Positions 2,924 through 57,238 of a DNA stretch of 64,000 bases are shown piece after piece. The notes beneath the pieces were generated by a model that was not told the origin of the DNA, made no database searches, and saw only the letters and a program-made list of their open reading frames with translations. Source of the stretch: Patescibacteria group bacterium (GTDB lineage: Bacteria > Patescibacteriota > Patescibacteriia > Patescibacteriales > UBA12465); assembly GCA_050949525.1 (NCBI GenBank), contig JBMNFW010000001.1, positions 335,890 to 399,889 on the forward strand, read 5' to 3'. Within the stretch, counting starts at the first letter, position 1. Each line of letters opens with the position of its first letter. The position numbers and the translations under genes were made by a program.

Positions 2924-4027
2924 CTAAAAAGAATAAAGTTTAGAAGTTTGAAGTACAATTTGATCCCAACTATATTCAAACTTCAACTTGTCATTATACA
3001 CTATATTTAAATTTTTGTCAATAGCTTCATCTTGTTCGCCGGCTAAGAAAGATTCTAATTTGTTTTTTAAATCTTCTACATCCTTATTAGCAAAGGAAAA
3101 AGCATCAGGGCCCATTACTTCTACATTAGCTTCAATATCACTAATTAATATTGGTAGTCGGTAAGAGATTGCTTCTAAGAGAGAAATAGATAATCCTTCG
3201 GCTTCTGATGGTTGAATAAAAAGAGCAGCATTAGAAAATAGTTCTCCTAAAATTTGACCACTCTGTTGTCCAGTAAAGATAATATTATTATTATCAGCTG
3301 CTAGTTTTTTTAAACTATCACTAAAATTACCATCACCAACGATAACTAATTTTTTATCAGTTTTAATTTGATTATAAGCATTGATAAGGTGTTCAATTCC
3401 TTTATTTCTAACTAAGCGAGAAATAGATACTAGGTAAGAATCTTTATTTAATCCCCATTTTTCTTTTATTAAATTAGCTTCTAAAATTTTTGGTAAATCA
3501 ACCCCATTAGGAATGTAGTGAGCGGTTCGATTATATTTTTCTTCGACATATTTTTTTAAAGATTTAGAAACTACAATAACCTCGTCAGCTAATCGAGATC
3601 CAATTCTTTCTCCGAGTAATAGATAAAATTGAGCTAATTTACCCCATTTACTATTATGGTAGCATTGGCTATGAAAAGTAAAGACAACCTTAACTCGAGG
3701 TCGGAATAATTTTACTAGCCAAATTAAAGAAGCTGGTCCAATAGAGTGAAAATGAATAACATCAGCTTTAGGTCGTCGGAAGATAAAATTTAAGACAGCT
3801 AAAAAGGTATGACTAATAGCATCTAAACTTTTAGTTGAAATACTTGGTAGGGGAATAAGCTTAACACCCTGATATTCTTTTAACTTTTTATCAGTATAAT
3901 TATATCGAGTATAGGCATAAACTTGATGTCCTGATTCTACTAGTTTTCGAGCCAAATTATCAACATGATTTTCAACGCCACCTCCTACTGCTGGTATTCC
4001 TTTTTGTCCAATTAAATATATTCTCAT
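2924..4027 (-). CDS. Glycosyltransferase family 4
   Basis: GT-B fold hallmarks: N-terminal GGVENHV and C-terminal PSEAEGLSISLLEA (the E-x7-E region). An extended -10 TGCTATAAT lies upstream at 4051-4059 on the minus strand. Confidence 0.8.
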   Translation of the reverse strand: MRIYLIGQKGIPAVGGGVENHVDNLARKLVESGHQVYAYTRYNYTDKKLKEYQGVKLIPLPSISTKSLDAISHTFLAVLNFIFRRPKADVIHFHSIGPASLIWLVKLFRPRVKVVFTFHSQCYHNSKWGKLAQFYLLLGERIGSRLADEVIVVSKSLKKYVEEKYNRTAHYIPNGVDLPKILEANLIKEKWGLNKDSYLVSISRLVRNKGIEHLINAYNQIKTDKKLVIVGDGNFSDSLKKLAADNNNIIFTGQQSGQILGELFSNAALFIQPSEAEGLSISLLEAISYRLPILISDIEANVEVMGPDAFSFANKDVEDLKNKLESFLAGEQDEAIDKNLNIVYNDKLKFEYSWDQIVLQTSKLYSF

Positions 4028-4086
4028 ATTTTTACAATTAATAACTCCTGATTATAGCATAAATGTAATTATATGTCAATAGTAAC

Positions 4087-4110
4087 AAAAAAACTCTATG
4101 ATAGAGTTTT
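4087..4110 (-). terminator. Rho-independent terminator after corA
   Basis: Stem AAAACTC / GAGTTTT with a 7-nt loop, followed on the minus strand by a T-run. Confidence 0.55.
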
Positions 4111-4136
4111 GGTATTATTTTCTTTGTTTATTTAGA

Positions 4137-5108
4137 CTATAACCACCTTTTTTTACGGAAGAAAAGTAAGAGTATTAAGCCTACTATTATCATAATAGCT
4201 GAGGTGATAAAAAAATCATTTAGACCTTCTGAAGTTCTTAGGGGATTAGGGTTTAAGTTCATTCCTAACATTGAGGCGATGAGATTTAGGGGCATTAGAA
4301 TAATAGAAACCACGGTTAAGGTTTTCATAATATTATTAATTCTGTAACTACTAATTGAATCACTAGTATCTTGGAGGGAATCAATAATTTCTTTTTGTGT
4401 TTCAGAAAATTCCCAAATTCTTTCGCTATGAATGGCTAGGCTATCATAATAGTTAAAAATTTTATTTTGAGATACTAAACTGCTTTTCATTTCAGTTAAT
4501 TTTTTCATAATATTTTTGTGATTTTGGATAATACGACGAATATTAATAATATTTCTTTTTAGTTTTAATAATTGAGCTGTAATAATCTTTTGTTTTTGGG
4601 AGAATATAATTTCTTCTAATTCGTTAATTTCAACATTATTTTTATCTAATAATTCATAAGAATCTTGAATGAGTTTTTCTAATATTTCGTATAATAATAT
4701 GGCAGATGATTCGAGATTATATGATTCTAAGAAAATAGTATCTTCGCGACAGTAGTTAAAAAAATTATTTAAAGCTTTAGTTTTACCATCGTGTAAACTA
4801 ATTAAAAATCCATGTCCAACAAAAAACTCTATTTCTCCCGGAATAATTTGTTTATTGGGACCTAGGACTGGAAAGTGGAGTATGATAAAAATATAGTTTT
4901 TACCTCGATGAACAATCGGGCGTTGTGAGATGTGTTTACTTAAAGAAGCTTGGAGGTGCTTATCTTCAAAATCAAAATTTTCCTTTAAGTATTTTATTTC
5001 TTTTTTTTCAGGATTAATAATATTATACCACTTGATTTTTTTAGGATCACGAGGATTATCAATAGTTAAAACCTTTATTTTTTTAGATATTTGTTTAAAA
5101 TTATTCAT
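4137..5108 (-). CDS. corA: Magnesium/cobalt transporter, CorA family
   Basis: GMN signature (MLGMNL) before the last TM helix. There are two C-terminal TM helices and the length is typical of CorA. Confidence 0.85.
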   Translation of the reverse strand: MNNFKQISKKIKVLTIDNPRDPKKIKWYNIINPEKKEIKYLKENFDFEDKHLQASLSKHISQRPIVHRGKNYIFIILHFPVLGPNKQIIPGEIEFFVGHGFLISLHDGKTKALNNFFNYCREDTIFLESYNLESSAILLYEILEKLIQDSYELLDKNNVEINELEEIIFSQKQKIITAQLLKLKRNIINIRRIIQNHKNIMKKLTEMKSSLVSQNKIFNYYDSLAIHSERIWEFSETQKEIIDSLQDTSDSISSYRINNIMKTLTVVSIILMPLNLIASMLGMNLNPNPLRTSEGLNDFFITSAIMIIVGLILLLFFRKKRWL

Positions 5109-5842: not shown

Positions 5843-5856
5843 TTTTAAAAGAACTA
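5843..5856 (-). promoter_or_regulatory. Conserved leader box TAGTTCTTTTAAAA
   Basis: The minus strand reads TAGTTCTTTTAAAA, then ttacagct (8 nt), then ATG of the 5834 gene. A TGACA-17-TAGTCT promoter-like pair lies just upstream. Confidence 0.6.
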
Positions 5857-7678: not shown

Positions 7679-7691
7679 TAGTTCTTTAAAA
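7679..7691 (+). promoter_or_regulatory. Conserved leader box TAGTTCTTTAAAA
   Basis: TAGTTCTTTAAAA, then aatatcgt (8 nt), then ATG at 7700. Confidence 0.6.
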
Positions 7692-36398: not shown

Positions 36399-36410
36399 TA
36401 GTTCTTTAAT
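36399..36410 (+). promoter_or_regulatory. Leader box variant TAGTTCTTTAAT
   Basis: It is preceded by TTGACATAAT at 36361. The spacing to ATG 36433 is longer (AGTTC to ATG is 33 nt). Confidence 0.4.
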
Positions 36411-36432
36411 ATATTAATAAAAAAATAAAAAA

Positions 36433-39164: not shown

Positions 39165-39200
39165 ATTGACAAAGATTTTAGTTTTTGTTAAAAAGGTTGG

Positions 39201-39213
39201 AGTTCTTTTAAAA
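39201..39213 (+). promoter_or_regulatory. Conserved leader box AGTTCTTTTAAAA
   Basis: TTGACA (39166), 17 nt, TAAAAA, then gAGTTCTTTTAAAA, then ttatagct (8 nt), then ATG 39222. Confidence 0.6.
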
Positions 39214-43907: not shown

Positions 43908-43920
43908 TTTTAAAGAACTA
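43908..43920 (-). promoter_or_regulatory. Conserved leader box TAGTTCTTTAAAA
   Basis: The minus strand reads TTAGTTCTTTAAAAATTGTATT then ATG. AGTTC to ATG is 20 nt. Confidence 0.6.
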
Positions 43921-55413: not shown

Positions 55414-56286
55414 TTATTTTTTTAATTTTCCATATACTCCAAAGAGTAGATCTAAATCTTTTTCTGAGTCTAATAATAATTTATTATTAAAACTAACTAT
55501 TGATTCTAAAAAATTTAATGCTAGTTTATTTTGTTTATCTCTAAACTTACAATCTTTATACATTTCTACTAAAGCAGCCATGTCTTTAATAAAGCAATGT
55601 CCACCCGCTCCTCGACCTACTTTACCCACTAAACCTCCTTGATGCTTTATTTTTAAATGACTATGACCAATACGGGAATCATAACTCACCATTTCAGCTA
55701 CTTTATCATAATTAATACCATTTTCTTTGGCTAAATTAAAAATTGTGTTAGCAAATACAACTTTTATCATTAAAAAAGCATTACCCATATATTTCGCTAA
55801 CTCCGCTTCTTTACTAGGTATAATAAAATTGTGATCTGCTGGTGGTAGAATATCTAAAACTGACTTAGCCAGTTTTTGAGATTTTTTAGTATAGCCAACA
55901 ATATTTCTTTCTGGAAATTTGGTATCATTCTTAGCGTTTTTTTCAGTTAAAAATTCAGGAGAGTGTATTATGAATTTTTTAGGATATAATTTTTGAATTT
56001 TTTCTGTTGTACCAATTTTAATAGTTGATTTGATAATAGCGGTTTTTCCATCACCAACTAATTTTATAACATCTAATAAAATACTATCATCAAAACCTTT
56101 AGGAGTAGTTGGAGTGGGAACAGCGACAAAAACGAAATCACATTCAGCAATTTTTTCTTTATTATGAGCAAATTTATTTTTACTATAACGAACTATATTA
56201 TAACCACGTTCAGCAAAATCATCAGCCATATTTTTACCAATAAAACCTTGTCCAATAAAGCCAATTAATAATTTTTCTTTTTTCAT
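55414..56286 (-). CDS. Nucleotide-sugar (UDP-glucose/GDP-mannose) dehydrogenase family protein, short form
   Basis: N-terminal Rossmann motif IGFIGQGFIG, VPTPT, and the catalytic Cys context GGHCFIKD. Confidence 0.7.
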   Translation of the reverse strand: MKKEKLLIGFIGQGFIGKNMADDFAERGYNIVRYSKNKFAHNKEKIAECDFVFVAVPTPTTPKGFDDSILLDVIKLVGDGKTAIIKSTIKIGTTEKIQKLYPKKFIIHSPEFLTEKNAKNDTKFPERNIVGYTKKSQKLAKSVLDILPPADHNFIIPSKEAELAKYMGNAFLMIKVVFANTIFNLAKENGINYDKVAEMVSYDSRIGHSHLKIKHQGGLVGKVGRGAGGHCFIKDMAALVEMYKDCKFRDKQNKLALNFLESIVSFNNKLLLDSEKDLDLLFGVYGKLKK

Positions 56287-56358
56287 ATAATTTGTAATTA
56301 ATTTTTAATTTATGCTCCAATTTTAAATTAAAAAATTATAAGTGTCAAAAATGAGGTG

Positions 56359-56387
56359 TTGACAATTGCCTTTAAATATGTTATAAG
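56359..56387 (+). promoter_or_regulatory. Consensus sigma70-like promoter
   Basis: TTGACA, 17 nt, then TATAAG. It is preceded by the same AGGTG as the 7646 promoter. Confidence 0.6.
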
Positions 56388-56394
56388 TTTAAAT

Positions 56395-56613
56395 TAGTTC
56401 TTTTAAAAGTTTTTGGGTAGGAGCGTTTTTGATATAAAAATTTGTATAAAAAACGCTCTTACTCAGGAAAATGTAAAACATCAGCACTCTCCTAATTACA
56501 ACACCCAATATAGACTTAGTCGGTCAGGAGATGGGATGAGTAAAACGCTATTGCTGATAGAAATCAGAAAAAACTAGGTTTTGATTTAAATCCCGGGCCT
56601 AGCGGGTAATACA
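56395..56613 (+). ncRNA. Candidate structured 5' leader or small RNA, starting with the leader box
   Basis: It starts with TAGTTCTTTTAAAA and has a 16-bp hairpin (GGGTAGGAGCGTTTTT / AAAAACGCTCTTACTC). Nested helices are ATCAGCA/TGCTGAT and TCTCCT/AGGAGA. G+C is locally raised, and its 5' and 3' ends are complementary. Confidence 0.4.
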
Positions 56614-57138
56614 ATGAGAATATCAAAAAAAATTGACTATCACAATCATCGAGAAATCAATACTCCAGGGGGAGTTTTTTTCTCTTTTATTCCTCATCTT
56701 TTTAAAGGTGATAGAGGAAGTCTGGTTATGATTGAGAAAAAATTAGTCAAAAAAATTTACGAGGAAGAAAAAACCCTCGTAACGGTTAGAGAGAAAACCG
56801 GTAAGGATGATCGAAAATATTTCGTCATCCGTAGCCCCAAAAACAAGGAGGACAAATATAGATTATTTGTTATCTCCTGTGGTGGGAATCAAGACCGCCG
56901 AGAGGATTATGGTCACTTCAGAATTAGGAATATCAAAGATGGGATAATAATTTATGATATCTCATCTTGGTGGGGGGAGAACCATCAAGTGTTAGTAGCA
57001 CTAAAAAAAGATGGTTATATAGAGATCGAAGGAAACCATGGTGCTGGTTTCAAGGGGCGCCATCCTCAACCAGATTTTTTAATAAAATTAAGCAGTGATG
57101 GCTCAGAAGAGCATATCACTGATCTCGATATTGATTAA
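56614..57138 (+). CDS. Hypothetical soluble protein (ORFan)
   Basis: A 174-aa ORF followed by a strong terminator (57145-57175). I recognise no family. Confidence 0.55.
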   Translation: MRISKKIDYHNHREINTPGGVFFSFIPHLFKGDRGSLVMIEKKLVKKIYEEEKTLVTVREKTGKDDRKYFVIRSPKNKEDKYRLFVISCGGNQDRREDYGHFRIRNIKDGIIIYDISSWWGENHQVLVALKKDGYIEIEGNHGAGFKGRHPQPDFLIKLSSDGSEEHITDLDID

Positions 57139-57144
57139 AAAATA

Positions 57145-57175
57145 AAACCTGTTTCAAATGAGACAGGTTTTTTTA
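57145..57175 (+). terminator. Rho-independent terminator
   Basis: Stem AAACCTGT / ACAGGTTT (extendable) followed by a T7 run. Confidence 0.7.
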
Positions 57176-57225: not shown

Positions 57226-57238
57226 TAGTTCTTTAAAA
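57226..57238 (+). promoter_or_regulatory. Conserved leader box TAGTTCTTTAAAA
   Basis: TAGTTCTTTAAAAAATATATT then ATG. It matches the 7679-7699 leader at 21 of 23 positions. Confidence 0.6.

Follow-up and report, generated by a model that had tools for sequence, protein, structure and literature searches.

The window (the whole stretch of 64,000 nucleotides that was analysed) contains an intergenic interval between two divergently oriented neighbours, a UDP-glucose-dehydrogenase-like gene (55414-56286, minus strand) and an ORF of 174 codons (56614-57138, plus strand). An earlier note on this DNA had proposed that the interval holds a promoter-driven structured RNA of roughly 220 nt, of no recognised class, which leads the downstream gene; this proposal is supported by the conservation of the interval, by the outcome of the Rfam search and by the failure of a competing small ORF, as described below. 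The sigma-70-type promoter (56359-56387, plus strand) was found in the sequence as the note had read it, with TTGACA at 56359-56364, a 17-nt spacer and TATAAG at 56382-56387, to which a TG at -15/-14 can be added; it was missed by our promoter scan because the scan accepts a -10 hexamer only if its sixth position is T. Transcription is predicted to start near 56393-56397. A terminator scan of the window returned nothing between the RNA and the ORF. Downstream of the ORF lies an intrinsic-terminator-like hairpin (57141-57174, plus strand; inverted repeat I6, 16-nt arms, 88% complementary) which runs into TTTTTTT and is predicted to close a single-gene transcription unit. The G+C content had been described as locally raised, and was indeed found to be 0.35-0.39 in the RNA compared to 0.19-0.24 in the flanking intergenic DNA, with the ORF enriched to the same degree; taken as a module, the RNA and gene are richer in G+C than the host both in the window (0.36 vs 0.31) and in L017 (0.37 vs 0.28), one of the homologous loci described below.

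The RNA-preceded gene encodes an uncharacterised protein of 174 amino acids for which AlphaFold gave a confident all-beta model (pLDDT 81, pTM 0.81). Strictly, this protein is not the ORFan it had been taken for: a search of 5.8 billion plus 1.8 billion proteins identified homologues in 15 clusters at 90% identity, which are 43-94% identical to the window protein, and by sequence comparison it is a member of a small uncharacterised family rather than a singleton. There was no match for the protein in the Pfam, NCBIfam, PADLOC or PHROGs libraries, nor anything significant in a PDB sequence search or in Foldseek searches against the PDB and BFVD (none at E <= 0.001 against the PDB, with a best TM-score of 0.23); no relatives were found in IMG/VR or among plasmids. 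Two weak resemblances were considered and not relied on, namely one between the C-terminal 50 residues and a single DUF5122 propeller blade, and one linking residues 80-169 to the N-terminal part of a structural protein of Pseudomonas phage PaMx11 (tblastn E 7e-4, hhalign probability only 12%). Two distant homologues, P0010 (372 aa) and P0011 (388 aa), are fused to an extra C-terminal domain of ~200 aa, which is 41% identical between the two and has no Pfam or NCBIfam match. No conserved downstream partner gene was identified, the downstream ORFs being unrelated to one another and to the extra domain of P0010 and P0011.

In the DNA surrounding the protein homologues a gap of 300-400 nt was found before every gene, and in 13 of the 15 protein lineages this gap aligns to window positions 56408-56613. 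A covariance model was built from the homologue alignment and searched in the window and in the loci fetched around the homologues (given L numbers here). The window holds a single full-length match (model R1; 56399-56616, plus strand; 228.6 bits, E 7.6e-65), within which the structured RNA of ~205 nt occupies 56410-56606. In total, 15 distinct copies of the RNA were obtained from ~10 lineages of uncultured bacteria, in host flanking DNA ranging from 28% to 49% G+C and in gene neighbourhoods that are unrelated between loci. All 15 copies are followed on the same strand by a homologue of the 174-aa protein, with the last helix strand of the RNA (e', see below) at a fixed distance of 7-14 nt from the start codon. 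When 185,579 species, each represented by one genome, were scanned with a DNA pattern, 2 true copies were returned, both adjoining the gene; a scan of IMG/VR for the RNA gave no true match.

Among loci with proteins of just 45-72% identity, the RNA is retained and shows compensatory changes. Nucleotide conservation was 0.70-0.85 in the core of the RNA compared to 0.64-0.71 in the ORF, and was higher for the RNA in 8 of 9 comparisons; about 50 positions (>45) are invariant, many of them unpaired. The covariance model found no RNA in L029, L032 or L033, where the proteins are 62-66% identical to that of the window, and the RNA is evidently unnecessary for the function of the protein because homologues exist without it in L029 and L033. 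In L033 (homologue 66% identical) the leader instead carries the Rfam motif DUF805b at 1135-1169 (RF02914; 47.8 bits, gathering score 35.6) and not the window-type RNA, followed by a CCCCC/GGGGG hairpin which lies 9 nt before the ATG. This motif sits at the corresponding position, in the 5' leader of a homologous gene, but it is a 35-nt hairpin-plus-tail motif to which the window RNA has no match at E <= 10; so far as the tools used can tell, it stands in for the window RNA as a leader and is not related to it.

The earlier note had recognised no known RNA class in the interval, and Rfam 15 (4227 models, including riboswitches, 6S, SRP, tmRNA and RNase P) agrees: at the gathering threshold, the only hits in the window were two tRNAs elsewhere, and at E <= 10 the interval gave only sub-threshold matches to eukaryotic miRNA hairpins (best 28.6 bits, 90 required), which are due to the long P1 hairpin. 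It had also been suggested that the conservation might reflect coding, the interval encoding a peptide from a 54-codon TTG-initiated ORF (56413-56577). The frame runs uninterrupted in the window, in L003 and in L016, that is, only in near relatives of the window and in L016, and it is not conserved in the other homologues: the corresponding stretch measures 161-170 nt with differences that are not multiples of three, stops interrupt the frame in L010, L031, L026, L030, L034, L039, L013, L023, L038 and L040, and the substitutions that preserve base pairs alter the amino acids (helix P6 would read LIEIR, PVETG or PIEIG). A peptide-coding origin of the conservation is considered extremely improbable. 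A conserved upstream mini-ORF following an internal GGAG was also considered and rejected, as its frames and lengths vary between lineages.

The predicted fold energy of the region was lower than that of shuffled sequences, with z-scores for the whole region of -4.4 on the plus strand and -3.0 on the minus strand. Eight helices (P1, P2, a, b, c, P6, d and e) are supported by the alignment of homologues. The first is a long hairpin, P1 (56410-56469, plus strand), whose arms 56410-56437 and 56442-56469 form 27 pairs, 11 of which show changes on both sides; in L013 and L038 its sequence is wholly different and the hairpin is retained, so that a stable hairpin is present near the 5' end in every lineage. 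The note had described it as a 16-bp hairpin at 56415-56466, which was correct as to its existence, now backed by covariation, and too short as to its reach. It is followed by P2 (56471-56481, plus strand), a 4-bp hairpin of the form ATGT-AAA-ACAT in which 56471-74 pair with 56478-81; all 4 pairs show both-sided changes (GTGC/GCAC, ACGT/ACGT, GCA/TGC), and in the G+C-rich group (L013 and L038) the helix is weak or missing. In one low-coverage assembly, L005 (ENA ERZ2648049, coverage 0.5x), P1 stands apart from the core, with ~960 bp (3875-4837) inserted between P1 and P2; the insertion carries an opposite-strand ORF of 192 aa whose similarity to RelA_SpoT is weak (E 8e-4) and below the Pfam cut-off, and it could be either a genuine insertion or an assembly chimera.

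The core begins with strand a (UCUCC, 56488-56492, plus strand), which pairs with a' (56527-56531). This TCTCC/GGAGA pairing had been picked out from the window sequence and proved to be kept in 15/15 homologues; the helix is 97% paired and recovered by RNAalifold, with one compensated pair (UCUCU/AGAGA in L039; a U-G pair occurs in L038 and L040), the remaining pairs being invariant. Strand b (CCCA, 56504-56507, plus strand) pairs with b' (56532-56535) and crosses a-a' to give pseudoknot 1; it is 100% paired on A8, with both-sided changes in 3 of 4 pairs and the variants CCCA/UGGG, CUCA/UGAG, GUUCA/UGAAC, GUUCG/CGAAC and ACCA/UGGU. Nested inside pseudoknot 1 is hairpin c-c' (GAC...GUC; 56513-56525, plus strand; 56513-15 with 56523-25), the middle pair of which switches between A-U and G-C in perfect correlation (10 G-C, 5 A-U, none broken). 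The two 3' strands are continuous at 56527-56535 (plus strand; GGAGA-UGGG, GGAGAUGGG), including an almost invariant CAGGAGAUG. A conserved joining region, AUGAGUAAAACGCUAUUG (56536-56553, plus strand), follows; no pairing partner could be established from the homologue alignment for its nearly invariant GCUAUUGC.

P6 (56554-56567, plus strand) is a hairpin of the form CUGAU-AGAA-AUCAG (56554-58 with 56563-67) with an invariant AGAA loop; it is 97% paired and 3 of its 5 pairs show both-sided changes (CCAGU/ACUGG, CCGAU/AUCGG, CUGGU/ACCAG, CCGG/CCGG). Strand d (CUAGG, 56574-56578, plus strand) pairs with d' (CCUAG, 56598-56602), with both-sided changes in 5 of 5 pairs (UCUAAG/CUUAGA in L013, CCCUGG/CCAGGG in L038, UCUGGA/UCCAGG in L025). 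As d' lies in the loop of hairpin e-e' (CCCG...CGGG; 56592-56606, plus strand; 56592-95 with 56603-06), the two form pseudoknot 2. Helix e-e' is 97% paired and recovered by RNAalifold; its third pair is C-G, U-G, U-A (L026) or A-U (L025), giving one compensated pair; in the other pairs no more than a single one-sided change is seen, and a single sequence leaves one of them unpaired. The last helix strand of the RNA is the G-rich CGGGU, and e' stops 7 nt before the AUG in the window. The a/b and d/e elements probably form two H-type pseudoknots that share one topology, with contiguous 3' strands in both (a'b', given above, and d'e', CCUAGCGGG). Of their helices, a-a' and e-e' are the less strongly supported, with a single compensated pair each.

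Beyond the first hairpin and TCTCC/GGAGA, the secondary structure drawn in the earlier note was largely wrong. The enclosing helix ATCAGCA/TGCTGAT forms 7/7 pairs only in the close relatives of the window and in L034 and 2-6/7 elsewhere; it is not conserved, and its CTGAT instead pairs with the downstream ATCAG in P6, which covaries. For the further hairpin AAATCAGAAA/TTTTGATTT, only 0-3 of 6 positions pair outside the window's own clade. The ATCAGCA/TGCTGAT and AAAUCAGAAA/UUUUGAUUU pairings are best read as lineage-specific coincidences. Likewise, the 5' end is complementary to 56566-90, as the note had proposed, in the window and in L010, and this pairing is not kept in other lineages; in the window, the 5'-3' closure lies mostly upstream of the predicted transcription start.

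The helices were proposed by reading the alignment and the pairs were then counted. In a MAFFT alignment made without reference to a structure, pairing was seen in 86.9% of cells, compared to 37-45% when the partners were slid by 1-3 columns, and both-sided changes were seen in 27 of 57 pairs (7-12 when slid). For the core without P1, in a model-fitted alignment, 94.4% of cells pair (31-42% slid) and 18 of 30 pairs show both-sided changes (1-4 slid). In both alignment tests, none of 500 shuffles matched the observed pairing values. RNAalifold, run blind on the MAFFT alignment, returned P1, a-a', c, P6 and e-e'; helices b and d, for which covariation is strongest, cannot be reported by the program because b crosses a and d crosses e. 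Across the homologous intergenic regions (15 copies), the structure was found to be conserved with compensatory changes, of the kind looked for in a structured cis-regulatory leader. The interval is almost certainly a genuine, evolutionarily conserved structured RNA.

A promoter belonging to the RNA was found directly 5' of P1 in three independent lineages, namely in the window, in L013 (TTGACA-17-TATAAT, 12/12) and in L038 (TTGACA-17-TATAGT, 11/12). In L017 and L018, which are close relatives of the window, the promoter is retained despite an IS inserted just upstream of its -35 box (L017 1188-3652; L018 1763-2812; rve/DDE transposase, with an HTH protein in L017), the dehydrogenase gene lying on the other side of the insertion. 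A back-to-back consensus-like promoter (TTGACA-17-TAAAAT or TATATT) was also observed on the minus strand of the window (56320-56348) and of L013 (3716-3744), where it drives the divergent upstream gene. No promoter is evident in L010, L026, L030, L031 and L039, which carry, 15-25 nt before P1, a type III hammerhead that scores 40-43 bits (E about 1e-7) and falls narrowly short of the Rfam gathering score of 48.5. Such a hammerhead (type III; CUGAUGA...GAAA core, three stems) is absent from the window interval in the Rfam scan at E <= 10.

The box reported 7 nt beyond the -10 element begins at 56395 as stated (TAGTTCTTTTAAA, 56395-56407, plus strand), and it is not specific to the RNA. Its consensus, TAGTTCTTTWAAA, is enriched throughout the window, with 15 matches at <=1 mismatch compared to 2.95 +/- 1.72 expected (0/100 shuffles); copies include 56395-56407, 57226-57238, 5844-5856 (minus strand), 7679-7691, 36399-36411, 39200-39212 and 43908-43920 (minus strand), and the box is located 4-15 nt downstream of TTGACA-17-(-10) promoter-like sites. 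The 14-nt direct repeat at 56395 and 57226, which flanks the unit, was considered as a target-site duplication and rejected, both being copies of this genome-wide box. Ordinary genes of the window genome have a 21-nt leader with the conserved box 8-9 nt upstream of the ATG, whereas at the RNA locus the folded RNA separates the box from the AUG. Only 1 of 60 ORFs in the window's host uses a Shine-Dalgarno sequence. The box could represent a standard short 5' leader, or else take the place of a Shine-Dalgarno sequence. The G+C-rich group has no leader box and keeps the core. A box of the form AGTTC[AG]TT[AG]AAA also lies directly 3' of every type III hammerhead in the metagenomic loci concerned (L010 1098 and 3770; L031 106 and 2770; L030 140; L039 27); since it follows hammerheads as well as promoters, it marks the start of a cistron after either a promoter or a ribozyme.

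With regard to function, the RNA keeps a fixed position next to the start codon, which favours an mRNA leader over a free sRNA, and we consider it moderately probable that the RNA is the leader of the 174-aa protein and controls its translation in cis. A cis-acting leader that controls initiation is favoured by several points taken together: the RNA ends 7-14 nt before the start codon with the G-rich CGGGU, the core outconserves the coding sequence and has ~50 invariant positions, and the protein also exists with a different leader. From the RNA, its helices and its fixed place before the start codon we infer a regulatory consequence and an effector, as follows. Transcription would start at the consensus-like promoter, about 15 nt 5' of P1, and the leader would fold into P1, P2 and a compact core, in which pseudoknot 1 (the crossing helices a-a' and b-b', enclosing hairpin c) is followed by P6 and by pseudoknot 2 (the crossing helices d-d' and e-e'). 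Pseudoknot 2 would cover the Shine-Dalgarno-like CGGGU, end 7 nt before the AUG and, when formed, keep the 30S subunit off the start site; in the window's host, this is better termed start-site occlusion than Shine-Dalgarno sequestration because of the low Shine-Dalgarno usage given above. The conserved unpaired CAGGAGAUG, CAAUAUAG and GCUAUUGC, the AGAA loop and AAAUCC would build a tertiary pocket for a putative effector, either a small molecule (as in a riboswitch) or the encoded protein (autoregulation), which would set the rate of translation by stabilising or dissolving pseudoknot 2.

Taken to its most specific form, this proposal would make the RNA the aptamer and expression platform of an undescribed riboswitch class, or else a specific binder of its own all-beta protein, with a double-pseudoknot architecture that moves with an orphan gene through uncultured bacteria lacking Shine-Dalgarno sequences, behind either a promoter or a hammerhead; so specified, it is put forward tentatively, as possible rather than probable. 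No conserved alternative (ON/OFF) conformer was found in the homologue alignment, the sole candidate for a competing pairing being UGAGUAA (56537-43) with TTACTCA in the 3' arm of P1 (56459-56465), which is kept only in the A+T-rich group. Such a result would also suit a constitutive structural leader, that is, a non-switching fold which guards the 5' end of the mRNA, or which positions the start codon by bringing the leader box near the AUG in hosts without Shine-Dalgarno sequences. The stable P1 close to the 5' end in every lineage is consistent with this, as is the separation by a folded RNA of a box and an AUG that are only 8-9 nt apart in ordinary genes. However, two pseudoknots and over 45 invariant positions, of which many are unpaired, far exceed what stability or spacing would need, and the G+C-rich L013 and L038 keep the core with no box to position; a constitutive leader is considered unlikely.

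The RNA might alternatively be a stable non-coding partner of the 174-aa protein, acting with it as an RNP or as a type III-like antitoxin or inhibitor in a two-part mobile module. In type III toxin-antitoxin systems (ToxIN, CptIN, TenpIN), a pseudoknot-forming RNA lies directly upstream of a protein of ~170 aa under one promoter, and the present unit is likewise compact, horizontally mobile and made of two parts; the size of the protein (about 170 aa) beside a pseudoknotted RNA recalls ToxIN. The strict co-occurrence of RNA and gene across unrelated contexts, the higher G+C of the module relative to its host in the window and L017, and the IS elements, hammerhead-punctuated cassettes and STIV_B116-like gene near some loci also point in this direction. 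Against it, the RNA contains no tandem repeat array (Tandem Repeats Finder returned only a 2-copy, A+T-rich 12-mer in the P1 loop region), there is no terminator between RNA and gene, the protein has no PADLOC match and no fold similarity in the PDB, to ToxN/AbiQ or otherwise, the L029 and L033 homologues lack the RNA, and the RNA extends right to the start codon as a leader would. A partner RNA is judged doubtful, slightly more so than a constitutive leader.

Cis-acting control by a leader, the reading preferred here, has its nearest parallels in the pseudoknot riboswitches SAM-II (RF00521), preQ1-II (RF01054), preQ1-III and SAM-V. Like these, the window RNA is a 5' leader with a conserved structure, encoded on the strand of its gene, the 3' strand of an H-type pseudoknot falls over a G-rich ribosome-binding region near the AUG, and there is no intrinsic terminator, which implies control at the level of translation. 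Unlike them, it is ~205 nt in length, three to four times larger, with two pseudoknots and a 27-bp hairpin; it matches none of them in sequence or structure (Rfam, E <= 10), the gene behind it is uncharacterised and its ligand is putative. The E. coli rpsO/S15 and alpha-operon/S4 leaders and that of phage T4 gene 32 are autoregulatory mRNA pseudoknots bound by their own product. In these, too, the pseudoknot lies at the initiation region of a single gene or close to it, in a one-RNA, one-protein pairing that moves together in evolution. Their products, however, are known nucleic-acid binders, whereas the 174-aa protein is a putative binder that has no recognisable domain; the window RNA is also much larger and more conserved than those operators. 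In size, in its many invariant unpaired nucleotides, in its covariation-backed pseudoknots and in having no known function when discovered, it resembles the orphan bacterial RNAs of ~200 nt that comparative genomics has revealed, such as the raiA motif (PMC10861870, PMC11109978). RNAs of that type are free-standing and widespread, whereas the window RNA is rare (~10 lineages), bound to one gene and abuts the start codon, and it matches no raiA-like orphan RNA in Rfam 15.

The RNA is regarded as a genuine new structured RNA family of the mRNA-leader or riboswitch-like kind, which is rare, tied to one orphan gene and putative in function. At 205 nt, with eight helices and ~50 invariant positions, it represents a substantial new fold absent from Rfam 15. 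If it senses a ligand, that ligand would be the first clue to what an orphan protein family without detectable relatives does, and the RNA would be a further riboswitch class, from little-studied bacteria that are A+T-rich and poor in Shine-Dalgarno sequences; the locus is also a natural test case for translation control in a setting where ordinary genes carry only the 21-nt boxed leader. Its rarity limits its general importance unless the mechanism proves unusual.

In the hammerhead-bearing loci, other hammerheads were found to flank neighbouring genes, an arrangement of hammerhead-flanked genes that has been described for prophages (PMC3088659). The type III hammerheads that flank single genes are located at 3717-3771 and ~1037-1095 in L010, 1023-1077 in L025, ~495-545 in L026, ~90-140 in L030, ~55-105 and 2717-2770 in L031, and ~1750-1800 in L039; several of the type III hammerheads have a C in place of the U at position 4 of the core (CCGAUGAG). 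Ahead of a different gene in L010 (1098-1200) and L031 (106-210), another hammerhead is followed by a second conserved leader (~100 nt; AGTTCATTAAAAATTTCATATTTAGTTTGGTTATCATTTATCC...), which may be another structured RNA.
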